64,000 bases of DNA. Source: Escherichia coli. GTDB lineage: Bacteria; Pseudomonadota; Gammaproteobacteria; Enterobacterales; Enterobacteriaceae. The position numbers and the translations under genes are program-made. The DNA is taken from assembly GCF_041886205.1 (NCBI RefSeq), contig NZ_CP169029.1. One strand, 5' to 3'. The notes beneath the pieces were generated by a model, which was given only the letters and a program-made list of their open reading frames with translations, was not told the origin of the DNA and ran no database searches. This document shows positions 10,234 through 64,000 of the stretch, piece by piece (positions within the stretch are counted from its first letter, which is position 1; each line of letters begins with the position of its first letter).

Positions 10234-12225
10234 ATGTCCTCACGTAAAGAGCTTGCCAATGCTATTCGTGCGCTGAGCATGGACGCAGTACAGAAAGCCA
10301 AATCCGGTCACCCGGGTGCCCCTATGGGTATGGCTGACATTGCCGAAGTCCTGTGGCGTGATTTCCTGAAACACAACCCGCAGAATCCGTCCTGGGCTGA
10401 CCGTGACCGCTTCGTGCTGTCCAACGGCCACGGCTCCATGCTGATCTACAGCCTGCTGCACCTCACCGGTTATGATCTGCCGATGGAAGAACTGAAAAAC
10501 TTCCGTCAGCTGCACTCTAAAACTCCGGGCCACCCGGAAGTGGGTTACACCGCTGGTGTGGAAACCACCACCGGTCCGCTGGGTCAGGGTATTGCCAACG
10601 CAGTCGGTATGGCGATTGCAGAAAAAACGCTGGCGGCGCAGTTTAACCGTCCGGGCCACGACATTGTCGACCACTACACCTACGCCTTCATGGGCGACGG
10701 CTGCATGATGGAAGGCATCTCCCACGAAGTTTGCTCTCTGGCGGGTACGCTGAAGCTGGGTAAACTGATTGCATTCTACGATGACAACGGTATTTCTATC
10801 GATGGTCACGTTGAAGGCTGGTTCACCGACGACACCGCAATGCGTTTCGAAGCTTACGGCTGGCACGTTATTCGCGACATCGACGGTCATGACGCGGCAT
10901 CCATCAAACGCGCAGTTGAAGAAGCGCGCGCAGTGACTGACAAACCGTCCCTGCTGATGTGCAAAACCATCATCGGTTTCGGTTCCCCGAACAAAGCCGG
11001 TACCCACGACTCCCACGGTGCGCCGCTGGGCGACGCTGAAATTGCCCTGACCCGCGAACAGCTGGGCTGGAAATACGCGCCGTTCGAAATCCCGTCTGAA
11101 ATCTATGCTCAGTGGGATGCGAAAGAAGTAGGCCAGGCGAAAGAATCTGCATGGAATGAGAAGTTTGCGGCTTACGCGAAAGCTTATCCGCAGGAAGCGG
11201 CTGAATTTACCCGCCGTATGAAAGGCGAAATGCCGTCTGACTTCGACGCCAAAGCGAAAGAGTTTATCGCTAAACTGCAGGCTAATCCGGCGAAAATCGC
11301 CAGCCGTAAAGCGTCTCAGAATGCTATCGAAGCTTTCGGTCCGCTGTTGCCGGAATTCCTCGGCGGTTCTGCTGACCTGGCACCATCTAACCTGACCCTG
11401 TGGTCTGGTTCTAAAGCAATCAACGAAGATGCTGCGGGTAACTACATCCACTACGGTGTTCGCGAGTTCGGTATGACCGCGATTGCTAACGGTATCTCCC
11501 TGCACGGTGGTTTCCTGCCGTACACCTCCACCTTCCTGATGTTCGTGGAATACGCACGTAACGCCGTACGTATGGCTGCGCTGATGAAACAGCGTCAGGT
11601 GATGGTTTACACCCACGACTCCATCGGTCTGGGCGAAGATGGCCCGACTCACCAGCCGGTAGAGCAGGTCGCTTCTCTGCGCGTAACCCCGAACATGTCT
11701 ACATGGCGTCCGTGTGACCAGGTTGAATCCGCGGTCGCGTGGAAATACGGTGTTGAGCGTCAGGACGGCCCGACTGCGCTGATCCTCTCCCGTCAGAACC
11801 TGGCGCAGCAGGAACGAACTGAAGAGCAACTGGCAAACATCGCGCGCGGTGGTTATGTGCTGAAAGACTGCGCCGGTCAGCCGGAACTGATTTTCATCGC
11901 TACCGGTTCAGAAGTTGAATTGGCGGTTGCTGCCTACGAAAAACTGACTGCTGAAGGCGTGAAAGCGCGCGTGGTGTCCATGCCGTCTACCGACGCATTT
12001 GACAAGCAGGATGCTGCTTACCGTGAATCCGTACTGCCGAAAGCGGTTACTGCACGCGTTGCTGTAGAAGCGGGTATTGCTGACTACTGGTACAAGTATG
12101 TTGGCCTGAACGGTGCTATCGTCGGTATGACCACCTTCGGTGAATCTGCTCCGGCAGAGCTGCTGTTTGAAGAGTTCGGCTTCACTGTTGATAACGTTGT
12201 TGCGAAAGCAAAAGCGCTGCTGTAA
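10234..12225 (+). CDS. tktA: Transketolase 1, 663 aa
   Basis: ORF track 10204..12225; ATG at 10234 gives [41 protein letters not shown]; TPP-binding motifs. Confidence 0.97.
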
Positions 12226-27881: not shown

Positions 27882-28877
27882 TTAATCAAAATATTGCGTC
27901 TGGATAAATTCACTGAGCTGCCGCAGGCCGGTGCGCGGTGAGAGCGTATTGTTTTTGACCGCTAAAAGCGTCTGGCGGTAATAGCGATCGAAATCTTCAT
28001 TCGCGAACAGGTGATTCAGTACTTCTTCTTCGGTCTGCTTACGCAGCCATTCCACCGATTGTTGTTGCCGCACTTGTTGTAAACGACCACTGGCAGTTAG
28101 CGCGGTTTTGAAGTCGATGATGGCGTGCCAGATCTCATCGATTCCACGTTTTTCCAGTGCGCTACAAGTCAGAACCCGTGGCTGCCATTCGTCGTATTTA
28201 CGTCGCAGAATATGCAGGGCACTCTCGTACATATGCCGGGCAATGGCGACATTGGTATGGTTATCGCCATCGTCTTTGTTGATAACGAGCAGATCAGCCA
28301 CTTCCATCAGCCCTTTTTTAATGCCCTGCAGATCATCGCCGCCACCGGCAATTTGCAACGAGATAAAACAGTCCACCATGCGGGCGACTTCCGTTTCCGA
28401 CTGCCCGACGCCAACCGTTTCGACAATCACTACGTCATAACCCGCCGCTTCGCATAACAGCATTAATTCCCGCGCTCGCTGACTGGCACCGCCCAGATGA
28501 CCGGAGGATGGTACCGGGCGAATAAACGCCGCTTCGGCACGCGCCAGGTCATTCATGCGGGTTTTATCCCCGAGAATGCTACCGCCAGTGACCGGGCTGC
28601 TGGGATCGACCGCAATAACCGCGACCTTTAATCCCTCACGAATCAACAACATGCCAAAGGCTTCAAGAAAGGTACTTTTCCCCGCGCCGGGTGTGCCGGT
28701 AACGCCCAGTCGCAGGGCGTTACCGCAGTACGGCATAATGGCATCAAGCAGTTGCGTACTTAGCGCCTGATGACGCGGGTGACGGCTTTCCACCAGCGTC
28801 ATGGCCTGGGCGAGTGTGGCACGCTCACCCTGACGTAAGCGGCGAATACTTTCTGCCAGCGTGGCTTCATTAATCAT
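27882..28877 (-). CDS. argK: MeaB/ArgK-type G-protein chaperone for methylmalonyl-CoA mutase, 331 aa
   Basis: ORF track 27882..28877; P-loop GTPGAGKST; the start overlaps the scpA stop by 8 bp. Confidence 0.95.
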
Positions 28878-31014
28878 GATGCTGGCTTATCAGATTCAGT
28901 ACGTCGCGCACACTGTCGAGCATAGGTGTACCTGGACCATAAATCGCCGCCACGCCGCGCTCTTGCAGGAAGGCGTAATCCTGCGGTGGAATGACGCCAC
29001 CGGCGACTACGCAGATATCTTCGCGTCCCCATTTTTTCAGCGCTTCGACCAGTTCCGGGATCAGCGTTTTATGACCGGCAGCCAGTGAGGATGCGCCCAC
29101 TACGTGAACGTCGTTTTCTACGGCCAGGCGGGCGATCTCTTCAGGTGTAGAGAACATCGGGCTTAAATCTACGTCGAAACCGAGATCGGAATAGGCGCTG
29201 GCGATCACTTTTGCGCCGCGATCGTGCCCATCCTGGCCCATTTTAGCGATCAGAATGCGCGGGCGACGACCATTGTCGGCAAGGAACTGCTCCGTTTGCG
29301 CAACAATGGCATCGAACTCGGAGGCCGATTTCTCAGATTGATGATAGCTTTGCGCAATCACGCCGGTAACACACTGGCTTGGCACCAGATAACGGTCGAA
29401 AGCGGCTTCCAGCGCATCGGAAATTTCACCCAGGGTGGCGCGAACGCGAGCGGCATTAACAGCGGCAGCCAGCAGGTTTTCGTTATGCTGTGCGGCGTGA
29501 GTCAGGGCGTTCAACGCGGCGGTTACGGCGGCATCATCACGGGTGGCGCGAATGCGTTCCAGCGAAGCAATTTGCTCGTTACGCACCATCACGTTGTCGA
29601 TCTCAAGTACATCGGTTTCGTCTTCGTGATCCAGTTTGTACTTGTTGACACCAACGATGACACGTTTGCCCTGGTCGATAAGCGACTGTTCGCGCGCTGA
29701 GGCCTCTTCGATCATTCGTTTTGGCAGACCTGCTTCGATCGCTTTCGCCATGCCACCGGCTTCGTCGATCTGTTGGATAATGGCTCTGGCTTGTTTGACG
29801 ATTTGATCGGTCAGCGACTCAACGTAATAGGATCCGGCCAGCGGATCGACGGTGCGGCAGAGTTCTGATTCTTCCTGGATGATGATCTGGGTGTTGCGGG
29901 CAATGCGTGCGGAGAAATCGGTAGGCAAACCAAGCGCTTCGTCAAAGGCGTTGGTATGCAGTGACTGAGTACCGCCCAGCGTCGCAGCCAGTGCTTCAAT
30001 GGTGGTGCGGATAACGTTGTTATACGGATCCTGTTCAGTCAGGCTCCAGCCTGAGGTCTGGCAGTGGGTACGCAGCGCCAGTGATTTCGGGTCCTGTGCG
30101 CCAAATCCACTGACCGCTTCGCTCCATAAATAACGTGCCGCACGCAACATGGCGACGTTCATAAACAGATCCATGCCGATGCCGAAGAAGAACGACAGGC
30201 GAGGAGCGAAGTCATCAATTTTCAGCCCGGCGGAGATTGCTGCTTTGATGTACTCAATCCCATCGGCGAGCGTAAATGCTACCTGCTGCACGCAGTTGGC
30301 ACCCGCTTCACCCATGTGGTAACCGCTGATACTGATGGTATTAAATCGCGGCATGTTGCCAGAACACCAGGCGATGATGTCGGCGATAATGCGCATTGAC
30401 GGTTTTGGCGGGTAAATATAGGTGTTGCGGCAAAGATACTCTTTGAGGATATCGTTTTGAATGGTGCCGGTCAGTTTATCAGGTGTAACACCTTGCTCTT
30501 CTGCGGCGACGATATAAAACGCCAGTACTGGTAGCACTGCGCCATTCATGGTCATCGAAACCGACATTTTTTCCAGCGGGATCTGGTCGAACAGGACTTT
30601 CATATCTTCCACGGTGTCGATAGCGACGCCCGCTTTGCCGACGTCGCCCGCCACGCGCGGGTTATCGGAGTCGTAGCCTCGGTGGGTGGCAAGGTCAAAC
30701 GCAACGGAAAGACCTTTTTGCCCGGCGGCCAGGTTACGGCGATAAAAAGCGTTGGACTCTTTTGCTGTTGAAAAACCAGCATACTGACGGATGGTCCACG
30801 GTTGGGCGGTATACATAGTGGCACGCGGGCCACGAACGTAGGGCGGCAAACCAGGAAGGGTACCTGTCACCTCCAGATTATCGAGATCGGCTTCGGTATA
30901 CAGCGGCTTGATGGCGATCCCTTCCGCGGTTTGCTGAACCAGCGAGTCGACAGTTTTCTCCCGACGGCTCAATTCCTTGTTGGCAAGCTGTTGCCACTCC
31001 TGCACGTTAGACAT
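28870..31014 (-). CDS. scpA: Methylmalonyl-CoA mutase (B12-dependent), 714 aa
   Basis: ORF track 28870..31035; ATG at rc 31012-31014 gives [40 protein letters not shown]. Confidence 0.96.
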
Positions 31015-33452: not shown

Positions 33453-34685
33453 ATGGCAAAGGTATCGCTGGAGAAAGACAAGATTAAGTTTCTGCTGGTA
33501 GAAGGCGTGCACCAAAAGGCGCTGGAAAGCCTTCGTGCAGCTGGTTACACCAACATCGAATTTCACAAAGGCGCGCTGGATGATGAACAATTAAAAGAAT
33601 CCATCCGCGATGCCCACTTCATCGGCCTGCGATCCCGTACCCATCTGACTGAAGACGTGATCAACGCCGCAGAAAAACTGGTCGCTATTGGCTGTTTCTG
33701 TATCGGAACAAACCAGGTTGATCTGGATGCGGCGGCAAAGCGCGGGATCCCGGTATTTAACGCACCGTTCTCAAATACGCGCTCTGTTGCGGAGCTGGTG
33801 ATTGGCGAACTGCTGCTGCTATTGCGCGGCGTGCCGGAAGCCAATGCTAAAGCGCACCGTGGCGTGTGGAACAAACTGGCGGCGGGTTCTTTTGAAGCGC
33901 GCGGCAAAAAGCTGGGTATCATCGGCTACGGTCATATTGGTACGCAATTGGGCATTCTGGCTGAATCGCTGGGAATGTATGTTTACTTTTATGATATTGA
34001 AAACAAACTGCCGCTGGGCAACGCCACTCAGGTACAGCATCTTTCTGACCTGCTGAATATGAGCGATGTGGTGAGTCTGCATGTACCAGAGAATCCGTCC
34101 ACCAAAAATATGATGGGCGCGAAAGAAATTTCACTAATGAAGCCCGGCTCGCTGCTGATTAATGCTTCGCGCGGTACTGTGGTGGATATTCCGGCGCTGT
34201 GTGATGCGCTGGCGATCAAACATCTGGCGGGGGCGGCAATCGACGTATTCCCGACGGAACCGGCGACCAATAGCGATCCATTTACCTCTCCACTGTGTGA
34301 ATTCGACAACGTCCTTCTGACGCCACACATTGGCGGTTCGACTCAGGAAGCGCAGGAGAATATCGGCCTGGAAGTTGCGGGTAAATTGATCAAGTATTCT
34401 GACAATGGCTCAACGCTCTCTGCGGTGAACTTCCCGGAAGTCTCGCTGCCACTGCATGGTGGTCGTCGTCTGATGCACATTCACGAAAACCGTCCGGGCG
34501 TGCTAACTGCGCTGAACAAAATCTTCGCCGAGCAGGGCGTCAACATCGCCGCGCAATATCTACAAACTTCCGCCCAGATGGGTTATGTAGTTATTGATAT
34601 TGAAGCTGACGAAGACGTTGCCGAAAAAGCGCTGCAGGCAATGAAAGCTATTCCGGGTACCATTCGCGCCCGTCTGCTGTACTAA
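33453..34685 (+). CDS. serA: D-3-phosphoglycerate dehydrogenase, 410 aa
   Basis: ORF track 33453..34685; MAKVSLEKDKIKFLLVEGVHQKALESLRAAGYTNIEFHKGALDDEQL... Confidence 0.97.
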   Translation: MAKVSLEKDKIKFLLVEGVHQKALESLRAAGYTNIEFHKGALDDEQLKESIRDAHFIGLRSRTHLTEDVINAAEKLVAIGCFCIGTNQVDLDAAAKRGIPVFNAPFSNTRSVAELVIGELLLLLRGVPEANAKAHRGVWNKLAAGSFEARGKKLGIIGYGHIGTQLGILAESLGMYVYFYDIENKLPLGNATQVQHLSDLLNMSDVVSLHVPENPSTKNMMGAKEISLMKPGSLLINASRGTVVDIPALCDALAIKHLAGAAIDVFPTEPATNSDPFTSPLCEFDNVLLTPHIGGSTQEAQENIGLEVAGKLIKYSDNGSTLSAVNFPEVSLPLHGGRRLMHIHENRPGVLTALNKIFAEQGVNIAAQYLQTSAQMGYVVIDIEADEDVAEKALQAMKAIPGTIRARLLY

Positions 34686-34737: not shown

Positions 34738-34864
34738 TCCCTTCTCCACACCGTTGCCGCGTTGCGCATTCTACTTTGCGAGTCTGCTCCAGAAAATAAA
34801 TCAAAGTCAGATCAATGCGTTGTGTTTATTTAATGGGGATTTACGATGGCGGGACAGCATGGGG

Positions 34865-35010
34865 CTGTAACGGTAAAGCCCTCACCGAAGCGAGGGCTTA
34901 AAGGAGAAGGGTTATGATGCGACTTGTCATCATACTGATTGTACTGTTACTGATAAGTTTCGGAGCTTATTAACAGTCAGTCTCAGGGGAGGAGTCATCC
35001 TCCCTTACCC
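34865..35010 (-). ncRNA. sibC: Sib antisense sRNA, copy 1 (approximate ends)
   Basis: Sib antitoxin RNAs are encoded opposite to and fully overlapping ibs; a minus-strand hairpin plus short U-tract (rc of 34877-34898) marks a probable 3' end. Ends are inferred, not mapped. Confidence 0.5.
34914..34973 (+). CDS. ibsC: Ibs-family type I toxin, 19 aa (MMRLVIILIVLLLISFGAY)
   Basis: ATG ATG CGA CTT GTC ATC ATA CTG ATT GTA CTG TTA CTG ATA AGT TTC GGA GCT TAT TAA; RBS aaggagaagggtt upstream; matches the Ibs hydrophobic toxin pattern. Confidence 0.8.
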   Translation: MMRLVIILIVLLLISFGAY

Positions 35011-35255
35011 TTACTCACTAAATTAGGTCAAAGAATCAACGATGTCAATCAGGGCGATGCGGGGTGCATCGCCCTGAACCGATCATTTGATAGACCCTTC
35101 ATCGCCCACGTTTACTGCCGTAATAGATCCTTTTTCCCAAAAATTATCTCTGTTTTGCATGGGGTTTTTCGAGCACGCTCGAAGAAAAGATTTAAAGGTA
35201 GATCAATGCGTTGTGGTTATTTAAAGAGAGCTTACGATAGCTGGGCAGCATGGGG

Positions 35256-35400
35256 CTGTAACGGTAAAGCCCTCACCGAAGCGAGGGCTTGAAGGAGAAG
35301 GGTTATGATGCGACTTGCCATCATACTGATTGTACTGTTACTCATAAGTTTCCCAGCTTATTAACAGTCAGTCACAGGGGAGGAGCAATCCTCCCTTACC
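35256..35400 (-). ncRNA. Sib antisense sRNA, copy 2 (approximate ends)
   Basis: Second repeat unit, same architecture as copy 1 shifted by 391 bp. Confidence 0.5.
35305..35364 (+). CDS. Ibs-family type I toxin, second copy, 19 aa (MMRLAIILIVLLLISFPAY)
   Basis: Same frame and RBS as copy 1; differs at 2 residues (V5A, G17P). Confidence 0.8.
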   Translation: MMRLAIILIVLLLISFPAY

Positions 35401-35464
35401 CTTACTCACTAAATTAGGTTAAAGAATCAACGATGTCAATCAGGGCGATGCAGGTGTGTCGCCC

Positions 35465-36013
35465 TCACCACTCCCAGACTTTCGACGGTGTAACCACCGC
35501 AGGAAGAGGGATATCCCACTCTTCAACGGGGAGTTTTTCCACCAACTGACAATCATGCGCATAACCCACCGGTTGCATTTTATAGTGCTGCCAGTTTTGT
35601 AAGGTCCGATCATAAAAACCACCGCCCATTCCCAGGCGCTGGCCGTACTCATCAAAGGCGACCAGCGGTGTGATCAACACGTCTAATCGGGAAAGGGGTA
35701 GCACGTCACGCACATCCAGTTTTGGCTCATGGATCTTCAACCTGTTCATCACCAGTTCGCTTTGCGGATGGTAATTCAGGAACAGCAAATTACCGGCACT
35801 AAAGGGATGCAAAACTGGAAGATATACGCGCTTACCGGCGCGCCAGAGTTGTTCTATGAGTGGCTGGGTGTCGAGTTCGCCATCAAAAGAGAGGAATACA
35901 GCGACCGTATGTGCCATCACCACCGGGGGATAAGTCATCATCCGGGTAGCGGCTTGTTGACCCATTTCCTGCTGTTGTTCCGGCGTTAACGTACGACGAC
36001 GTTGCCGAATCAT
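35465..36013 (-). CDS. ygfA: 5-formyltetrahydrofolate cyclo-ligase family protein, 182 aa
   Basis: ORF track 35465..36211 over-extends into ssrS; ATG at rc 36011-36013 gives MIRQRRRTLTPEQQQEMGQQAATRMM; lies directly downstream of 6S RNA on the same strand. Confidence 0.9.
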   Translation of the reverse strand: MIRQRRRTLTPEQQQEMGQQAATRMMTYPPVVMAHTVAVFLSFDGELDTQPLIEQLWRAGKRVYLPVLHPFSAGNLLFLNYHPQSELVMNRLKIHEPKLDVRDVLPLSRLDVLITPLVAFDEYGQRLGMGGGFYDRTLQNWQHYKMQPVGYAHDCQLVEKLPVEEWDIPLPAVVTPSKVWEW

Positions 36014-46350: not shown

Positions 46351-47094
46351 ATGGCTATAGCACTTGTGACCGGTGGCAGTCGCGGCATCGGGCGGACAAC
46401 TGCATTACTGTTGGCGAAAGAAGAGTATACGGTGGCGGTTAATTATCAACAAAACCTCCATGCGGCGCAGGAAGTGGTGAACTTAATCACGCAAGCCGGT
46501 GGCAAGGCATTCGTGCTCCAGGCGGATATCAGCGACGAAAATCAGGTCATCGCAATGTTTACAGCAATCGATCAGCACGATGAACCGCTAGCAGCGCTGG
46601 TCAATAACGCCGGGATCTTGTTTACCCAGTGCACCGTTGAAAACCTTACCGCAGAGCGAATCAACCGAGTACTTTCCACCAACGTGACGGGATATTTTCT
46701 CTGCTGCCGCGAGGCGGTAAAACGCATGGCGCTTAAAAATGGTGGCAGTGGCGGCGCTATCGTCAATGTCTCTTCGGTGGCCTCACGGTTGGGTTCGCCA
46801 GGGGAATATGTTGATTACGCGGCATCGAAAGGGGCGATTGATACGTTAACCACCGGACTATCGCTGGAAGTCGCCGCGCAGGGGATCCGCGTTAACTGCG
46901 TGCGGCCAGGGTTTATTTATACCGAAATGCACGCCAGCGGCGGCGAGCCTGGACGCGTCGATCGCGTTAAGTCGAACATCCCCATGCAGCGTGGTGGACA
47001 GGCAGAAGAGGTCGCGCAGGCCATTGTCTGGCTACTAAGTGATAAAGCCTCTTACGTCACGGGAAGTTTTATCGATTTGGCGGGCGGGAAATAA
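46351..47094 (+). CDS. ygfF: Short-chain dehydrogenase/reductase family oxidoreductase, 247 aa
   Basis: ORF track 46351..47094; SDR motifs TGGSRGIGR (NAD(P) binding) and YxxxK (YAASK). Confidence 0.9.
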   Translation: MAIALVTGGSRGIGRTTALLLAKEEYTVAVNYQQNLHAAQEVVNLITQAGGKAFVLQADISDENQVIAMFTAIDQHDEPLAALVNNAGILFTQCTVENLTAERINRVLSTNVTGYFLCCREAVKRMALKNGGSGGAIVNVSSVASRLGSPGEYVDYAASKGAIDTLTTGLSLEVAAQGIRVNCVRPGFIYTEMHASGGEPGRVDRVKSNIPMQRGGQAEEVAQAIVWLLSDKASYVTGSFIDLAGGK

Positions 47095-54145: not shown

Positions 54146-55879
54146 GTGAAACAACAGATACAACTTCGTCGCCGTGAAGTCGATGAAACGGCAGACTTGC
54201 CCGCTGAATTGCCTCCCTTGCTGCGCCGTTTATACGCCAGCCGGGGCGTGCGCAGTGCGCAAGAACTGGAACGCAGTGTTAAAGGTATGTTGCCCTGGCA
54301 GCAACTGAGCGGTGTCGAAAAGGCCGTTGAGATCCTTTACAACGCTTTTCGCGAAGGAACGCGGATTATTGTGGTCGGTGATTTCGACGCCGACGGCGCG
54401 ACCAGCACGGCTCTAAGCGTGCTGGCGATGCGCTCGCTTGGTTGCAGCAATATCGACTACCTGGTACCAAACCGTTTCGAAGACGGTTACGGCTTAAGCC
54501 CGGAAGTGGTCGATCAGGCCCATGCCCGTGGCGCGCAGTTAATTGTCACGGTGGATAACGGTATTTCCTCCCATGCGGGGGTTGAACACGCTCGCTCGTT
54601 GGGCATTCCGGTTATTGTTACCGATCACCATTTGCCAGGCGAAACATTACCCGCGGCGGAAGCGATCATTAACCCTAACTTGCGCGACTGTAATTTCCCG
54701 TCGAAATCACTGGCAGGCGTGGGTGTGGCGTTTTATCTGATGCTGGCGCTGCGCACCTTTTTGCGCGATCAGGGCTGGTTTGATGAGTGTGGCATCGCAA
54801 TTCCTAACCTGGCAGAACTGCTGGATCTGGTAGCGCTGGGGACAGTAGCGGACGTCGTGCCGCTGGACGCTAATAATCGCATTCTGACCTGGCAGGGGAT
54901 GAGTCGCATCCGTGCCGGAAAGTGCCGTCCGGGGATTAAAGCGCTGCTGGAAGTGGCAAATCGCGATGCGCAAAAACTCGCCGCCAGCGATTTAGGTTTT
55001 GCGCTGGGGCCACGTCTCAATGCTGCCGGGCGACTGGACGATATGTCCGTCGGTGTGGCGCTGTTGCTGTGCGACAACATCGGCGAAGCGCGCGTGCTGG
55101 CAAATGAACTCGATGCGCTAAACCAGACGCGAAAAGAGATCGAACAAGGAATGCAAGTTGAAGCCCTGACCCTGTGCGAGAAACTGGAGCGAAGTCGCGA
55201 CACGCTACCCGGCGGGCTGGCAATGTATCACCCCGAATGGCATCAGGGCGTTGTCGGTATTCTGGCTTCGCGCATCAAAGAGCGTTTTCACCGTCCGGTT
55301 ATCGCCTTTGCGCCAGCAGGTGATGGTACGCTGAAAGGTTCAGGTCGCTCCATTCAGGGGCTGCATATGCGTGATGCACTGGAGCGATTAGACACACTCT
55401 ACCCTGGCATGATGCTGAAGTTTGGCGGTCATGCGATGGCGGCGGGTTTGTCGCTGGAAGAGGATAAATTCGAACTCTTTCAACAACGGTTTGGCGAACT
55501 GGTTACTGAGTGGCTGGACCCTTCGCTATTGCAAGGCGAAGTGGTGTCAGACGGTCCGTTAAGCCCGGCCGAAATGACCATGGAAGTGGCGCAGCTGCTG
55601 CGCGATGCTGGCCCGTGGGGGCAGATGTTCCCGGAGCCGCTGTTTGACGGTCATTTCCGTCTGCTGCAACAGCGGCTGGTGGGCGAACGTCATTTGAAGG
55701 TGATGGTCGAACCGGTCGGCGGCGGTCCACTGCTGGATGGTATTGCTTTTAATGTCGATACCGCTCTCTGGCCGGATAACGGCGTGCGCGAAGTGCAACT
55801 GGCTTACAAGCTCGATATCAACGAGTTTCGCGGCAACCGCAGCCTGCAAATTATCATCGACAATATCTGGCCAATTTAG
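54146..55879 (+). CDS. recJ: Single-stranded-DNA-specific 5'-3' exonuclease RecJ, 577 aa
   Basis: ORF track 54146..55879, GTG start; DHH/DHHA1 motifs (VVGDFDADGATS, DHH). Confidence 0.96.
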   Translation: MKQQIQLRRREVDETADLPAELPPLLRRLYASRGVRSAQELERSVKGMLPWQQLSGVEKAVEILYNAFREGTRIIVVGDFDADGATSTALSVLAMRSLGCSNIDYLVPNRFEDGYGLSPEVVDQAHARGAQLIVTVDNGISSHAGVEHARSLGIPVIVTDHHLPGETLPAAEAIINPNLRDCNFPSKSLAGVGVAFYLMLALRTFLRDQGWFDECGIAIPNLAELLDLVALGTVADVVPLDANNRILTWQGMSRIRAGKCRPGIKALLEVANRDAQKLAASDLGFALGPRLNAAGRLDDMSVGVALLLCDNIGEARVLANELDALNQTRKEIEQGMQVEALTLCEKLERSRDTLPGGLAMYHPEWHQGVVGILASRIKERFHRPVIAFAPAGDGTLKGSGRSIQGLHMRDALERLDTLYPGMMLKFGGHAMAAGLSLEEDKFELFQQRFGELVTEWLDPSLLQGEVVSDGPLSPAEMTMEVAQLLRDAGPWGQMFPEPLFDGHFRLLQQRLVGERHLKVMVEPVGGGPLLDGIAFNVDTALWPDNGVREVQLAYKLDINEFRGNRSLQIIIDNIWPI

Positions 55880-55969
55880 CGTCATCTTCTCTATAAAAAA
55901 GAGCGTGGATTGGGTACAATCCCGCTCTTATCACCGCATTTTGACTAGCTCAATAAAAGAAATCAGACC

Positions 55970-57068
55970 ATGTTTGAAATTAATCCGGTAAATAATCGCA
56001 TTCAGGACCTCACGGAACGCTCCGACGTTCTTAGGGGGTATCTTTGACTACGACGCCAAGAAAGAGCGTCTGGAAGAAGTAAACGCCGAGCTGGAACAGC
56101 CGGATGTCTGGAACGAACCCGAACGCGCACAGGCGCTGGGTAAAGAGCGTTCCTCCCTCGAAGCCGTTGTCGACACCCTCGACCAAATGAAACAGGGGCT
56201 GGAAGATGTTTCTGGTCTGCTGGAACTGGCTGTAGAAGCTGACGACGAAGAAACCTTTAACGAAGCCGTTGCTGAACTCGACGCCCTGGAAGAAAAACTG
56301 GCGCAGCTTGAGTTCCGCCGTATGTTCTCTGGCGAATATGACAGCGCCGACTGCTACCTCGATATTCAGGCGGGGTCTGGCGGTACGGAAGCACAGGACT
56401 GGGCGAGCATGCTTGAGCGTATGTATCTGCGCTGGGCAGAATCGCGTGGTTTCAAAACTGAAATCATCGAAGAGTCGGAAGGTGAAGTGGCGGGTATTAA
56501 ATCCGTGACGATCAAAATCTCCGGCGATTACGCTTACGGCTGGCTGCGTACAGAAACTGGCGTTCACCGCCTGGTGCGTAAGAGCCCGTTTGACTCCGGC
56601 GGTTGTCGCCACACGTCGTTCAGCTCTGCGTTTGTTTATCCGGAAGTTGATGATGATATTGATATCGAAATCAACCCGGCGGATCTGCGCATTGACGTTT
56701 ATCGCGCGTCCGGCGCGGGCGGTCAGCACGTTAACCGTACCGAATCTGCGGTGCGTATTACCCACATCCCGACCGGGATCGTGACCCAGTGCCAGAACGA
56801 CCGTTCCCAGCACAAGAACAAAGATCAGGCCATGAAGCAGATGAAAGCGAAGCTTTATGAACTGGAGATGCAGAAGAAAAATGCCGAGAAACAGGCGATG
56901 GAAGATAACAAATCTGACATCGGCTGGGGCAGCCAGATTCGTTCTTATGTCCTTGATGACTCCCGCATTAAAGATCTGCGCACCGGGGTAGAAACCCGCA
57001 ACACGCAGGCCGTGCTGGACGGCAGCCTGGATCAATTTATCGAAGCAAGTTTGAAAGCAGGGTTATGA
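55970..57068 (+). CDS. prfB: Peptide chain release factor 2, 365 aa, made by programmed +1 ribosomal frameshift (frame 0: 55970-56044; frame +1: 56046-57068)
   Basis: ATG at 55970 gives [25 protein letters not shown], then in-frame UGA at 56045-56047 within the shifty motif CUU UGA C preceded by the SD-like AGGGGG; the +1 frame continues [12 protein letters not shown]... to the stop at 57068 (ORF track 56187..57068 is in this frame); SPF and GGQ motifs present. Confidence 0.95.
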
Positions 57069-57077
57069 GGAACCAAC

Positions 57078-58595
57078 ATGTCTGAACAACACGCACAGGG
57101 CGCTGACGCGGTAGTCGATCTTAACAATGAACTGAAAACGCGTCGTGAGAAGCTGGCGAACCTGCGTGAGCAGGGGATTGCCTTCCCGAACGATTTCCGT
57201 CGCGATCATACCTCTGACCAATTGCACGCAGAATTCGACGGTAAAGAGAACGAAGAACTGGAAGCGCTGAACATCGAAGTCGCCGTTGCTGGCCGCATGA
57301 TGACCCGCCGTATTATGGGTAAAGCGTCTTTCGTTACCCTGCAGGATGTGGGGGGCCGCATTCAGCTGTACGTTGCCCGTGACGATCTGCCGGAAGGCGT
57401 TTACAACGAGCAGTTCAAAAAATGGGACCTCGGCGACATCCTCGGCGCGAAAGGTAAACTGTTCAAAACCAAAACCGGCGAACTGTCTATCCACTGTACC
57501 GAGCTGCGTCTGCTGACCAAAGCACTGCGTCCGCTGCCGGATAAATTCCACGGCTTGCAGGATCAGGAAGCGCGCTATCGTCAGCGTTATCTGGATCTCA
57601 TCTCTAACGATGAATCCCGTAACACCTTTAAAGTGCGCTCGCAGATCCTCTCTGGTATTCGCCAGTTCATGGTGAACCGCGGCTTTATGGAAGTTGAAAC
57701 GCCGATGATGCAGGTGATCCCTGGCGGTGCCGCTGCGCGTCCGTTTATCACCCACCATAACGCGCTGGATCTCGACATGTACCTGCGTATCGCGCCGGAA
57801 CTGTACCTCAAGCGTCTGGTGGTTGGTGGATTCGAGCGTGTATTCGAAATCAACCGTAACTTCCGTAACGAAGGTATCTCCGTACGTCATAACCCAGAGT
57901 TCACCATGATGGAACTCTACATGGCTTACGCAGATTACAAAGATCTGATCGAGCTGACCGAATCGCTGTTCCGTACTCTGGCACAGGATATTCTCGGTAA
58001 GACGGAAGTGACCTACGGCGACGTAACGCTGGACTTCGGTAAACCGTTCGAAAAACTGACCATGCGTGAAGCGATCAAGAAATATCGCCCGGAAACCGAC
58101 ATGGCGGATCTGGACAACTTCGACTCTGCTAAAGCGATTGCTGAATCTATCGGCATCCACGTTGAGAAGAGCTGGGGGCTGGGCCGTATCGTTACCGAGA
58201 TCTTCGAAGAAGTGGCAGAAGCACATCTGATTCAGCCGACCTTCATTACTGAATATCCGGCAGAAGTTTCTCCGTTGGCGCGTCGTAACGACGTTAACCC
58301 GGAAATCACAGACCGCTTTGAGTTCTTCATTGGTGGTCGTGAAATCGGTAACGGCTTTAGCGAACTGAATGACGCGGAAGATCAGGCGCAGCGCTTCCTG
58401 GATCAGGTTGCCGCGAAAGATGCAGGTGACGACGAAGCGATGTTCTACGATGAAGATTACGTTACCGCACTGGAACATGGCTTACCGCCGACAGCAGGTC
58501 TGGGAATTGGTATCGACCGTATGGTAATGCTGTTCACCAACAGCCATACCATCCGCGACGTTATTCTGTTCCCGGCGATGCGTCCGGTGAAATAA
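57078..58595 (+). CDS. lysS: Lysyl-tRNA synthetase (constitutive), 505 aa
   Basis: ORF track 57078..58595; [33 protein letters not shown]. Confidence 0.97.
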
Positions 58596-58611
58596 GCATT
58601 ACGTTATGCTC

Positions 58612-58642
58612 ACAACCCCGGCAAATGTCGGGGTTTTTTTAT
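58612..58642 (+). terminator. Rho-independent terminator of prfB-lysS (overlaps the idi 3' end)
   Basis: aaccccggc-aaatgt-cggggtt followed by ttttttta. Confidence 0.75.
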
Positions 58643-59187
58643 TTAAGCTGGGTAAATGCAGATAATCGTTTTCTGGCTTCGCGATTTGTCGCCTGCATCA
58701 CCATCCACGGACTGAACGCCCACGGTGTGGCATCAATACCGTGTAATACATCTGCTAAATCACACCATTGATAATCCATCACTTCATCATCATTGATCTG
58801 TAACGCGCTGGTCGTGCGTGCGGCAAATACAGGGCACACTTCATTCTCAACAATGCCACTCGGATCGGCGGCGCGGTAGCGAAAGTCAGGATAGATAGAT
58901 TCAGGAGGCGTAATTTCCACGCCAAGCTCATAACGGCAACGGCGGATCACCGCGTCTTCGCTGCTTTCTCCCAGTTGTGGGTGCCCACAAACCGAGTTAG
59001 TCCACACGCCAGGCCATGCTTTTTTGCTCAGTGCGCGGCGGGTAACTAATAATTGACCTTTGGCATTAAACAGCCAACTGGAGAACGCGAGATGTAAGCG
59101 GGTGTCTGCCGTGTGTGCGGCATACTTTTCCAGCGTACCCGTGGGAACTCCCTGTGCATTCAATAAAATGACGTGTTCCGTTTGCAT
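58639..59187 (-). CDS. idi: Isopentenyl-diphosphate delta-isomerase (type 1, Nudix fold), 182 aa
   Basis: ORF track 58639..59187 minus; [41 protein letters not shown]. Confidence 0.95.
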
Positions 59188-59436
59188 AATTTCTCACATG
59201 TAATTCTGATCACTCATCATTATAGATAATTGAAGAGTGAAATGATTAACCAAGTGAGCGTTTATCGACAACCGCCCGTTTTGAGCGGATGTCGACAGGT
59301 AAAAACCATTTAAAAAAGTAGCATCATATATTTGAAGCGACTTTCAATGGCCATTGCAACACAGTCAGAAATAACAGGAATAGAGAGAGTAAAAAGCAAC
59401 AGCAGACTGAATATAGCGCGCATTAAAAAATTCATA

Positions 59437-60885
59437 TTATTCTCCATGCTCATTTTTCTTCAGCTTGCGCATCAGAAGCCACATACGTACTGTCCTGACT
59501 TTTAAATCTTTATCAGAGACGGATTCCTTCACCAGGTCAGCATGATGCTGGTAGCCATTAAAGAAGACGTTCAGCACAACGGCGCTAAGGGTTGCGAGCA
59601 TAATGCCGCTATGCAGCAACGGTTGCAGTACGGCCGGTAACTTAGAAAAGAAATCGTGAGAGAGCGTCGGAGTCATGCCAACGCCGAGACTGATCGCCAC
59701 AATATAGAGGTTGTAACGGTTGGTGGTGTAGTTACAGCGCGACAGAATTCGAATCCCTGTCGCCAGTACCATGCCGAACATCACCAGACCAGCGCCGCCC
59801 AGCACAAATTGCGGAATGGAGGCTACCAGCACCGCCATTTTTGGCACCATGCCAAACAGGATTAATATAATTCCCGAAGAAATACACACCCAGCGGCTAT
59901 GAACGCGCGTCACGCTAACCAGGCCAACGTTTTGAGAAAATGACGTGTGGGGGAAGCTGTTAAACGTGCCGCCTATCATTGTCCCTACGCCATCGACACG
60001 CAGCCCGCGAATAATATCGTGTGAAGAGAGTTTACGACCGACTATTTCACCCAGTGCCAGGAACATCCCCATCGACTCGATAAACACGATGATTAACACG
60101 GCAGTCATGGTCAGAATGGAAACGGGATCGAAAATCGGCATACCAAACGACATCGGGGTGACAATCGCAAACCACGAGGCATCATGTAGCCCGGATAAAT
60201 TGACTTCATTCATCATCCACGAAAGTAAAAAGCCAAATACAATCCCCAGTAATACGGCGACGTTGGACATAAATCCTTTCGCATAGCGAGTAATGAGCAA
60301 GATAAAAATTAAGACGGCAAAGGAGATACCTAAATAAACGGGATTACCATATTGCGGATTCCCTTTACCTCCGGCGGCCCAGTCAATACCCACCTGAATG
60401 ATGCTAAGCCCGATAGAAGTAATAACCACACCGGTAACCAGTGGCGGGAATAAAGGCATCAAGCGACCGATAAGTGGCGCTAATAATGTGGTGATAAAAC
60501 CCGCGGCGATAGTGGCACCAAAGATCCCCAGCAGGCCGATATCCGGGTTCATCCCAATGGCTATCATTGGTGTTACAGCAGCAAAGGTCACCGACATAAT
60601 CACCGGCAGGCGGATCCCCATAAAGCGGCCGATACCGATACATTGCAATAATGTGACGATCCCGCAGCAAAAGAGATCCGAGCTAATGAGCATCGCAATA
60701 GCTTCTTTTGAGAGGCCCAGTCGGTCACCAATCATAAGAGGAACAGCGACTGCACCTGCGTACATGACAAGGACGTGTTGCAGACCGAGTATGATCAGCT
60801 TTCCTGGTGATAATATGCGGTCAACCTCATCAGTTGGGCGGTCTTGCCCAGAAGATGAGGGAAGTTGGGAATCTATGGCGCTCAT
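59437..60885 (-). CDS. uacT: NCS2-family nucleobase (uric acid/xanthine) permease, 482 aa
   Basis: ORF track 59437..61014 over-extends; ATG at rc 60883-60885 gives MSAIDSQLPSSSGQDRPTDEVDRILSPGKLIILGLQHVLVMYAGAVAVPLMIG. Confidence 0.92.
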   Translation of the reverse strand: MSAIDSQLPSSSGQDRPTDEVDRILSPGKLIILGLQHVLVMYAGAVAVPLMIGDRLGLSKEAIAMLISSDLFCCGIVTLLQCIGIGRFMGIRLPVIMSVTFAAVTPMIAIGMNPDIGLLGIFGATIAAGFITTLLAPLIGRLMPLFPPLVTGVVITSIGLSIIQVGIDWAAGGKGNPQYGNPVYLGISFAVLIFILLITRYAKGFMSNVAVLLGIVFGFLLSWMMNEVNLSGLHDASWFAIVTPMSFGMPIFDPVSILTMTAVLIIVFIESMGMFLALGEIVGRKLSSHDIIRGLRVDGVGTMIGGTFNSFPHTSFSQNVGLVSVTRVHSRWVCISSGIILILFGMVPKMAVLVASIPQFVLGGAGLVMFGMVLATGIRILSRCNYTTNRYNLYIVAISLGVGMTPTLSHDFFSKLPAVLQPLLHSGIMLATLSAVVLNVFFNGYQHHADLVKESVSDKDLKVRTVRMWLLMRKLKKNEHGE

Positions 60886-61320
60886 CAGTGTTTCTCCTTT
60901 CGCCCGCCAGAGTAAAAAGCAACCGTTTACGTTAATGAAACTGTCTAAACACATGCTCGTGGAGTGCCAGTTTTTGCGAGGAAGGGGAGTTAGAGACAGG
61001 AATTGCGGAGGCAATCACATAATCGTGGTTAAACCACGAAAATGAGAAGAGAACCTGACAATGGAATTATCTGTAATTTTCTCATATTGATATTTCATTA
61101 ATCATTCTGGCATGTCGCACTCTCGCATTTAATCGTTTTTATCTGGATAGCGCTCTTTTGATCGGCAATGTTGAAATAATGAAAGCGGCATAGATTGAGG
61201 GGCAATAATTTGAACTCAGTCGCAAAATTATAATTAAAACGGTCATGCTACCTAATATATGCCCGTTTATTGCATCGCGAAATTTGAGAAGACATAACTC
61301 ATTAAATGAAAGGGATGCAA

Positions 61321-61848
61321 ATGAATAAGTTTATCGCTGCTGAAGCTGCGGAATGTATAGGCTGTCATGCTTGTGAAATTGCCTGTGCGGTGGCACACAA
61401 TCAAGAAAACTGGCCGCTGAGTCACAGTGACTTTCGACCGCGTATCCACGTTGTAGGGAAAGGCCAGGCTGCGAATCCGGTGGCCTGCCATCACTGCAAC
61501 AATGCCCCTTGCGTTACGGCTTGTCCGGTTAATGCTCTGACTTTCCAGTCCGATAGCGTACAACTGGACGAGCAAAAATGTATTGGTTGTAAAAGATGCG
61601 CAATCGCTTGCCCCTTTGGCGTCGTTGAGATGGTCGATACGATTGCGCAGAAATGCGACCTTTGTAACCAGCGCAGTTCCGGCACGCAAGCCTGTATTGA
61701 AGTTTGCCCAACACAGGCGTTACGACTGATGGACGATAAAGGGTTACAGCAGATAAAGGTGGCCCGCCAGCGCAAAACGGCAGCAGGAAAAGCGTCATCA
61801 GACGCTCAGCCATCTCGCAGTGCAGCGTTGCTCCCCGTTAACTCGCGT
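61321..61848 (+). pseudogene. ygfT: N-terminal 4Fe-4S ferredoxin-domain remnant of a ygfT-like Fe-S oxidoreductase, truncated at an apparent deletion junction
   Basis: ATG at 61321 (RBS aaaggga) gives MNKFIAAEAAECIGCHACEIAC...CHHCNNAPCVTACP...CIGCKRCAIACP...CDLCNQ...CIEVCP (four Cys clusters). After about residue 176 the frame runs into the reverse complement of ygeW and translates to low-complexity sequence until the stop at 62046. The expected GltD-like flavin/NAD domain is absent. Confidence 0.55.
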
Positions 61849-62827
61849 ACAGGGCTTCGCCATCACGGGTCAGTTCCATCATCTCTTCAGTACAATGCCA
61901 GTCTTTGTGTTGCGCGTTCTGTGCCAGACACTGTTTTTCCAGTGCTTTTAAGCCTTCGTGATCGTTCGCACGCAGCAATTCAGTACGCTCTTCCATCACT
62001 TTGTAAGGTGCCCATGACTTCGGATAAACGATGTCTGCGTCTTTGAAGGCTTCTTCCATGCTGGTGACCTGACGGAAGCTACCACCGGAGGCTTTAGCAT
62101 TGTTTTTCGCCACTTCAACCACATCCGGGATCAGGTCGTAGCCTTCCGGATGGGCCAGGGTGACATCCATACCGAAGCGAGTCATCAGACCGATGATGCC
62201 TTGTGGTACAGAGAGCGGTTTGCCATAGCTTGGAGAGTAGGCCCAGGTCATGGCGATTTTTTTACCTTTCAGGTTTTCCAGTGAACCAAAGTGTTCACGT
62301 AACCACGCGAGGTCAGCCATTGACTGAGTCGGGTGGTCAATATCGCATTGCAGGTTCACTAAAGCCGGACGCTGTGGCAGTACACCCTGCTTGTAACCGT
62401 CATCAAGTGCAGCGCCAACTTCACGCATATAGGCGTTGCCTGCGCCCAGATACATATCGTCGCGAATACCAATAGCGTCGGCGCAGAAGGAGATCATATT
62501 GGCGGTTTCACGCACGGTTTCGCCGTGAGCGATTTGTGATTTGCCTTCGTCGAGATCTTGTTGTGCAAGGCCGAGCAGGTTAAGCGCGGAAGCATAAGAG
62601 AAGCGGGTACGGGTGGAGTTGTCGCGGAATACGGAAATACCTAATCCACTATTAAAGACTTTGGTTGAGATGTTTTCAGCACGCAGTGCTTTTAATGCTG
62701 CGGCAACGTCCAGTACTTGTTTCAGTTCATCTGGCGTCTGTTCCCACGTTAACAAAAAATCTTTCTCGTGAAGGTGAGAGGTCAGCGAATTGATATCCTT
62801 AATCAGCTCATTAACAGTTTTCATCAT
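61838..62827 (-). pseudogene. ygeW: Carbamoyltransferase (YgeW-like) lacking its C-terminal segment
   Basis: ORF track 61838..62827 minus (329 aa); contains the carbamoyl-phosphate-binding STRTR motif but ends ...TRDGEALYAS* with no HxLP-type C-terminal motif. Full-length YgeW is about 396 aa as recalled. Confidence 0.6.
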
Positions 62828-63302
62828 AAAGTCCCGGTAGTGGAATGACAGGCAAAGTGGTTTATTTCACTGTGACTTGCCAAAGTGATTGGTGTTTTCA
62901 CAGCTATACCTGGGACTAACAATAAGTGTGCCAGAATTATCCACGGGGCTGCAAAAGACTAATTTGACGGATAATGTGTGGGGTTGATCACAAATTGATG
63001 CCAGCTTCCGGTTGTTTGTAAAATACGAAAACGTTTGGCTTTTTTTATCGCGTTATTTATTTGCTGCTAAGTATCAGAAATAAGATAAAGGGACAGGCTA
63101 TCCCTCGTCAGTTTGATAAACTCACTGCCGTAATTCTCATATTGATATAGAAATGTGATATCTCTTCCATAATTTCATTAGAAAGTGATAAAAATCTTAT
63201 GTTTTTATCAAAGCCAATTTCGCCTGAGTTAATATCATCATGATCTGTGAACCATCAACGTCTTCAATGATCGACTTTTAAGTAAGTCTGGAAGGTAAAG
63301 CT

Positions 63303-64000
63303 ATGGAGCTTGCTACTACGCAGTCAGTATTGATGCAAATTCAACCGACAATTCAGCGTTTTGCCAGAATGCTTGCCAGCGTTTTGCAGCTTGAGGTTGA
63401 GATCGTTGATGAAAACTTGTGTCGCGTTGCCGGAACGGGCGCGTATGGGAAGTTTCTTGGTCGCCAGTTGAGCGGCAACTCACGCCTGCTCCGCCACGTC
63501 CTGGAAACGAAAACTGAAAAAGTTGTGACACAGTCTCGCTTCGATCCCCTTTGCGAAGGTTGCGATAGTAAAGAAAATTGCCGCGAAAAAGCATTTCTGG
63601 GTACGCCTGTCATTTTACAGGATCGTTGTGTTGGGGTGATAAGTTTGATTGCCGTTACCCACGAGCAACAAGAGCATATCAGTGATAATTTACGCGAATT
63701 TTCTGATTATGTTCGCCATATATCCACCATTTTTGTTTCGAAACTTCTGGAGGATCAGGGGCCAGGAGATAACATCAGTAAAATATTCGCGACCATGATC
63801 GATAATATGGATCAGGGCGTATTAGTTGTTGATGATGAAAGTCGGGTTCAGTTTGTTAATCAGACTGCCTTAAAAACACTTGGTGTTGTACAAAATAATA
63901 TTATTGGGAAACCTATCCGTTTCAGACCATTAACATTTGAGAGTAATTTTACTCATGGACATATGCAGCATATTGTTTCGTGGGACGATAAAAGTGAATT
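63303..64000 (+). CDS. ygeV: Sigma54-dependent transcriptional activator YgeV, N-terminal part (continues beyond window)
   Basis: ATG at 63303 opens a frame with no stop to the window end (MELATTQSVLMQIQPTIQRFARMLASVLQLEVEIVDENLCRVAGTGAYGKFLGRQL...); divergent from ygeW as in K-12. Not in ORF track because it lacks a stop. Confidence 0.85.
   Translation, partial: MELATTQSVLMQIQPTIQRFARMLASVLQLEVEIVDENLCRVAGTGAYGKFLGRQLSGNSRLLRHVLETKTEKVVTQSRFDPLCEGCDSKENCREKAFLGTPVILQDRCVGVISLIAVTHEQQEHISDNLREFSDYVRHISTIFVSKLLEDQGPGDNISKIFATMIDNMDQGVLVVDDESRVQFVNQTALKTLGVVQNNIIGKPIRFRPLTFESNFTHGHMQHIVSWDDKSE

Follow-up and report, generated by a model that had tools for sequence, protein, structure and literature searches.

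An IS-free deletion of about 23 kb joins ygfT to ygeW and removes the anaerobic uric-acid gene cluster in a lineage of Escherichia coli

Organization of the locus

The window, by which we mean the whole stretch of 64,000 nucleotides of Escherichia coli DNA analysed here (contig NZ_CP169029.1, assembly GCF_041886205.1), carries near its right end four genes or gene remnants grouped around a junction. An intact uacT, coding for a urate/proton symporter (59437–60885, minus strand; called from its ORF and from the PGAP annotation of the identical locus in E. coli wlxctx60, WP_001295374.1), now adjoins the junction, and is followed by a 5′ remnant of ygfT (uacF), a 5′ remnant of ygeW in the opposite orientation and the 5′ part of ygeV, which encodes a sigma-54-dependent activator (63303–64000, plus strand; PGAP, WP_000417808.1, the same protein as in the genome 6EVA) and is intact in wlxctx60. 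The outcome at the junction itself is a pair of convergent, overlapping pseudogenes.

The ygfT remnant consists of codons 1–176 plus one nucleotide (61321–61849, plus strand) and is identical in translation to residues 1–176 of K-12 YgfT. The plus-strand ORF, which extends from 61321 to 62046 and has an alternative ATG at 61306, departs from the K-12 protein at residue 177 and, by translation, runs on through a tail of 65 unrelated codons plus a stop (61850–62046, plus strand) that lies on the antisense strand of ygeW. Intact YgfT has 639 aa (K-12 and 6EVA), and the 3′ 463 codons are gone. Pfam matches on the full-length protein place the Fer4 families at residues 9–137, Fer4_20 at 188–298 and Pyr_redox_2 at 312–623, so that the break lies in the linker that separates the N-terminal ferredoxin module from the Fer4_20/Pyr_redox_2 modules. 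The remnant retains the complete N-terminal multi-cluster ferredoxin-like module, with 16 cysteines that fall into four groups (residues 12, 56, 87 and 112), and has lost the Fer4_20 and Pyr_redox_2 (FAD/NAD(P)H) domains, both of which lie beyond residue 176. It is a pseudogene and no member of the YgfT/UacF (AegA-type) Fe-S flavoproteins; the PGAP annotation of the wlxctx60 copy bears the note ‘missing C-terminus’.

The ygeW remnant comprises 326 native codons counted from the RefSeq start (61847–62824, minus strand) and is identical to K-12 YgeW through Tyr326, after which the native continuation M-HCLPADI is gone and a new 3′ end of Ala-Ser-stop, supplied by the antisense strand of ygfT (61838–61846, minus strand), takes over (TAC GCG AGT TAA, read as Y A S and stop). 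The native ...EALYMHCLPADI... is thereby replaced by ...EALYAS*, and the minus-strand ORF as a whole runs from 62827 to 61838, with a second in-frame ATG at 62825–62827. The native sequence ends one residue short of the HCLP motif: the remnant is without this HxLP motif and the last 69 residues of the knotted carbamoyltransferase fold. Intact YgeW has 395 aa from the RefSeq start (K-12 and 6EVA), and the solved structure of the E. coli protein (PDB 3q98) can be aligned over residues 1–395 of the full-length form. Precomputed Pfam matches for the 328-aa product comprise PF02729 and PF00185 (OTCace_N and OTCace), with the C-terminal domain cut short, and PGAP again notes ‘missing C-terminus’ for this gene in wlxctx60.

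The original prediction, made from the letters of the window, had described much of this architecture, and comparison with K-12 upholds it. The four cysteine clusters typical of a ygfT-like N-terminus lie in a stretch identical to K-12 YgfT, the match to YgfT ends at the predicted codon 176, the ORF does continue through the reverse complement of ygeW, and ygeW does stop as ...EALYAS* at 61838 where the HxLP motif belongs. The estimate that YgeW was about 67 residues short of roughly 396 aa was close, the actual figures being 69 missing of 395. Both flanking genes had been proposed to be pseudogenes, and both are truncated and already so marked by PGAP.

Upstream of the ygeW start, at a distance of ~95 bp, the window retains a sigma-54-type −24/−12 motif (TGGCACACTTATTGT; 62919–62933, minus strand), which is a pattern match only and would fit control by the divergently encoded sigma-54 activator YgeV. 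Were it active, transcription from it would now proceed into the ygfT remnant, on the antisense strand. We found no terminator-like site between the convergent remnants, and a scan for promoters and terminators around the junction gave nothing above shuffled expectation; overlapping antisense transcripts are likely at this arrangement.

Neither of the two chimeric products of read-through from YgfT (241 and 246 aa) had an exact match on record, nor had the 329-aa form of YgeW, which is recorded in its 328-aa form only. These missing records probably reflect the choices that gene callers make about starts and pseudogenes, and not the absence of the allele.

The junction and its breakpoints

Alignment of window positions 55000–64000 to a 38-kb K-12 stretch from ygfZ to xdhB resolves the locus into two collinear blocks. 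The left flank matches K-12 MG1655 base by base through window position 61849 (position 10973 of the K-12 locus, inside ygfT) and the right flank matches from 61847 (position 34134, inside ygeW), so that the junction occupies 61847–61849 and joins ygfT codon 176 to codon 326 of the convergent ygeW. The three positions are a GTA microhomology common to both parental breakpoints, as seen in the comparison with K-12 and with a second reference, 6EVA, which is the closest among the complete genomes that keep the locus intact. No base is inserted. The absent DNA amounts to 23,163 bp against K-12 MG1655 and to 22,982 bp against 6EVA, with the same breakpoints and the same GTA overlap; the two measures differ by 181 bp because of a length polymorphism in the yqeB–arcC spacer, which lies inside the interval. 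This spacer has 220 bp in K-12 (about 28812–28950 of locus L003) and 40 bp in 6EVA (locus L007), and the ~181 bp that are extra in K-12 may be a repetitive extragenic element.

There is no IS1 terminal repeat anywhere in the window, neither a target duplication nor extra bases were found at the junction, and no in-register direct repeat of at least 8 bp occurs within 150 bp on either side of the two parental breakpoints. A search for repeats and palindromes that might account for slippage turned up one 8-mer (GCAGTGCA) that is out of register and one inverted match of 10 bp, over 50 bp away from the parental breakpoints, and nothing else; we judged both to be due to chance. If extended, the GTA overlap shows six of seven bases alike (GTAcAGG versus GTAaAGG).

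Alignment to K-12 for the exact breakpoint and any microhomology was one of the checks proposed with the original prediction, and it delivers both at base level. The predicted single deletion between ygeW and ygfT is what the two collinear flanks and the absent intervening DNA display; its junction, placed at 61845–61849, narrows to 61847–61849, and the observation that no IS or repeat is visible there holds, the 3-bp microhomology being all that the two ends share. The expected loss of the genes from ygeX through ygfS agrees with the gene content of the K-12 and 6EVA interval. The guess of about 25 kb was right in that a large interval is gone and somewhat too high, the actual size being 23.0–23.2 kb.

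Gene content of the lost interval

Fifteen whole genes are lost: ygfS, ghxQ, guaD, xanQ, xdhD, ygfM, ssnA, ygfK, mocA, yqeC, yqeB, arcC/yqeA, hyuA, ygeY and dpaL/ygeX. All structural genes of the reductive (anaerobic) pathway for uric acid are among them, namely xdhD-ygfM, ygfK, ssnA, hyuA, yqeA/arcC, ygeY and ygeX/dpaL; the others are guaD, ygfS, the transporter genes xanQ and ghxQ, and three genes for the molybdenum cofactor, mocA, yqeB and yqeC.

Distribution of the junction

A survey of other genomes for the same junction, likewise proposed with the original prediction, shows that the junction is common to a lineage and not peculiar to one assembly. Among 5,426 complete E. coli genomes, in 5,333 of which the flanks were matched, a single one, wlxctx60 (NZ_AP045833.1; from Japanese black bear faeces, Gifu), has the junction in one piece. 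The exact 83-base junction is found in wlxctx60 and in three further assemblies, Logan SRR9913974, Logan SRR12026227 and ENA ERZ28646962 (the four loci being L001, L004, L005 and L006). The loci from these three further assemblies are 99.98–100% identical to the window, and the Logan contig of SRR9913974 is 100% identical to it over 6.2 kb at the junction region. At the protein level, EKI50607.1 (E. coli N1) matches the truncated YgeW of 328 aa exactly, and this protein occurs on 44 contigs; among the contigs read, 21 have the gene order of L004, in which uacT lies ~950 bp downstream of the truncated ygeW, and L005 is arranged likewise. A scan of JGI metagenome contigs with a 40-mer spanning the junction gave no match, and carriers of the allele are thus not frequent among those contigs.

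Compared with wlxctx60, the window shows 10 mismatches and a 1-base gap in its first 50 kb and one mismatch in its last 11 kb. Because of these 11 mismatches and one indel, we take the window to come from an independent sister genome of the deletion lineage.

Other deletions and lesions at the locus

The core of the cluster, from ssnA to ygfK, is present in 5,185 of the 5,426 complete genomes and missing from the other 241 (~4%). An 18-kb query made of the two flanks was covered to at least 80% in a single place in 56 of the 5,426, with the flanks within ~9.5 kb of each other. We inspected five other deletion genomes, 100416 (locus L008), PSS-16 (L016), EC17CM2 (L017), E89 (L018) and VE-T9 (L019), which are commensal or animal isolates. 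They resemble the window in that much of the same purine/uric-acid cluster is gone and the truncated flanks are marked as pseudogenes by PGAP. All five, however, keep IS1 at the junction, whereas the junction of the window is IS-free with a 3-bp overlap. Their breakpoints differ from one another: some of the deletions start in the uacT–ygfT spacer, at xanQ or in ghxQ, and four of the five run into ygeV, whereas the breakpoints of the window lie in ygfT and ygeW. Since the inspected genomes have IS1 and differing breakpoints, loss of the region is recurrent and usually IS1-mediated, and the IS-free junction of the window is a separate event of a different kind.

In PSS-16 and E89 the IS1 transposase gene sits at the same locus coordinates in the uacT–ygfT spacer, with different ends inside ygeV, as would be expected if a single IS1 copy had given rise to adjacent deletions one after another or as alternatives. 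Beyond deletions, ygeW is split in some genomes into ORFs of 314 and 81 aa (loci L010–L012, P0013) or of 273 and 119 aa (L013–L015, P0011), with clusters that are otherwise intact and with roughly 10–55 contigs or collection blocks for each such lineage. Because other lineages carry these splits, ygeW has been inactivated repeatedly by small mutations too.

Origin of the deletion

We consider it very probable that the junction records a real, lineage-shared deletion of ~23 kb, formed a single time in a recent ancestor and without a mobile element. One break would have fallen in the inter-domain linker of ygfT and the other in ygeW, shortly before the HCLP codons; the two ends, sharing only GTA, would then have been joined by an illegitimate, homology-independent route, which we place in the class of RecA-independent end joining or of replication slippage at little or no homology. 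The GTA by itself is no proof of a microhomology-driven mechanism, because about 5% of random junctions share 3 bp (the chance of an overlap of at least 3 bp at a random junction being 0.051, for an observed overlap of 3 bp).

Spontaneous deletions at short or no homology are well known in E. coli from illegitimate recombination, the classical lacI deletion spectra and alternative end joining. The window shares with such deletions its collinear breakpoints, the lack of inserted DNA, the overlap of a few bases and the lack of a mobile element. Classical slippage deletions usually employ repeats of 5–17 bp and span shorter distances, in contrast to the 3 bp across 23 kb seen here; since so short an overlap spans 23 kb, end joining or topoisomerase error would fit as well as slippage, and all three appear compatible with the junction sequence. 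The event is recent on the species tree, because the remnants are protein-identical to K-12 and the flanks nearly identical to 6EVA (the left flank differing at four sites over 7.4 kb and the right flank at none over 2.15 kb). In kind, it is ordinary lineage-specific gene loss, a further instance of a well-known type of event, and both pseudogenes are already in public annotation.

Of the other explanations, an IS-mediated adjacent deletion followed by loss of the IS copy fares best, and we still hold it to be quite improbable. IS1 is clearly active at the locus and stands at the junction in all five of the other deletion genomes inspected, which is the attraction of this reading; but the junction of the window has no IS, IS1 terminal repeat, target duplication or extra bases, and an IS1 adjacent deletion keeps the IS, so that its scarless removal would need a second, improbable event.

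That the flanks were wrongly joined by an assembler, with the interval really present, is a possibility raised along with the original prediction, and its probability is now negligible. Besides the window, the identical junction is present in wlxctx60, a complete genome, and in three more assemblies, from separate samples and pipelines (Logan, ENA), and its occurrence in at least five independent assemblies makes misassembly very unlikely; the truncated YgeW recurs on 44 contigs, and neither breakpoint lies in a repeat able to mislead an assembler. We further queried genomes with a composite of the 2-kb junction and seven 200-bp probes from the interval, which matches one place in wlxctx60 versus nine in intact genomes: none of the seven probes has a match elsewhere in wlxctx60. 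The same result bears on the proposal that the interval was moved to another place on the chromosome or to a plasmid, for which the 64 kb of the window, as a part of its own genome, would leave room; as in the complete wlxctx60 the probes match nothing outside the junction locus, such a rearrangement is exceedingly improbable.

A bare presence/absence polymorphism would also be seen with an ancestral empty site with short original genes, into which a 23-kb island was inserted in other E. coli, and nothing beyond that bare pattern speaks for it. The junction cuts two ORFs in mid-gene, both of which are full length in K-12 and 6EVA, the structure 3q98 aligns to residues 1–395 of YgeW, the Fer4_20 and Pyr_redox_2 domains of YgfT lie downstream of the break, the ssnA–ygfK core is present in the great majority of complete genomes as given above, and the nearest relative, with flanks 99.9–100% identical, has the interval; we give this reading practically no chance. 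The related idea that ygfT and ygeW are naturally short, so that no DNA was lost between them, is ruled out by the 639-aa and 395-aa genes with the whole cluster between them in K-12 and 6EVA.

Returning to illegitimate deletion as the preferred reading, a broader and more speculative proposal can be built on it together with the IS1-associated cases. It holds that the ygeV–ygfT purine and uric-acid island, for which at least six junctions of independent origin were seen, is a hotspot of recurrent deletion whose loss is favoured in some hosts or niches and not merely tolerated, and that the IS-free junction marks a circulating clade of natural knock-outs. We regard this proposal as unlikely, if less so than the rival explanations above. 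If true, the clade, found in wildlife faeces and other samples, would provide natural knock-outs for anaerobic uricolysis and for molybdopterin cytosine dinucleotide synthesis.

Predicted functional consequences

The interval codes for the reductive uric-acid pathway, in which XdhD-YgfM reduce urate to 2,8-dioxopurine, YgfK and SsnA carry out dearomatisation and ring opening, and HyuA, YgeW (with the carbamate kinase YqeA), YgeY and YgeX perform the remaining steps to pyruvate and ammonia (PMC12507026). The phenotypes of xdhD and ygfK knock-outs validated their proposed steps in this pathway (PMC12507026), and in published mutants anaerobic use of uric acid was partly blocked, with no labelled acetate formed (bioRxiv 10.1101/2022.07.24.501321). 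Because the interval encodes the reductive pathway according to these published assignments, carriers of the deletion should be unable to degrade uric acid anaerobically; all phenotypic consequences considered here are drawn from published knock-outs in other strains. The published single-gene laboratory deletions removed the same enzymes as are missing from the window, but one gene each, whereas the window has lost the entire pathway naturally and in one step and, beyond the laboratory deletions, also guaD, two purine transporters, ygfS, most of ygfT, mocA, yqeB and yqeC.

A second set of predicted consequences concerns the molybdenum cofactor. The enzyme that produces the molybdopterin cytosine dinucleotide cofactor is MocA, and the candidate XdhC-like chaperone for XdhD and XdhABC is YqeB (review PMC2997495). 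We infer that the retained ygeV, uacT and xdhABC are functionally stranded: mocA and yqeB sit inside the deletion, and for this reason the intact xdhABC near the junction is probably left, along with paoABC elsewhere in the genome, without molybdopterin cytosine dinucleotide.

The anaerobic uric-acid pathway was worked out only in 2022–2025, and efforts are under way to introduce it into probiotics for use against gout (PMC12507026; 10.1101/2022.07.24.501321). The deletion lineage and the nearly identical intact 6EVA would suit as a strain pair for testing the role of the pathway in the gut, and the sharp junction offers a simple PCR or k-mer marker for the lineage.

Other observations in the window

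Two further features of the window came to light in the comparison with wlxctx60. The gene ygfF, coding for an SDR-family oxidoreductase (46351–47094, plus strand), is an intact ORF of 247 aa in the window and is annotated as frameshifted in wlxctx60. The one 1-base gap in the alignment of the two sequences probably stems from this difference, and the frameshift may be genuine variation between strains or else a homopolymer error of the wlxctx60 assembly. Further upstream, at 34809–35465, two copies that are ~92% identical and lie ~390 bp apart correspond to two loci of Ibs-family type I toxins in the annotation of wlxctx60; paired loci of this family are ordinary in E. coli.
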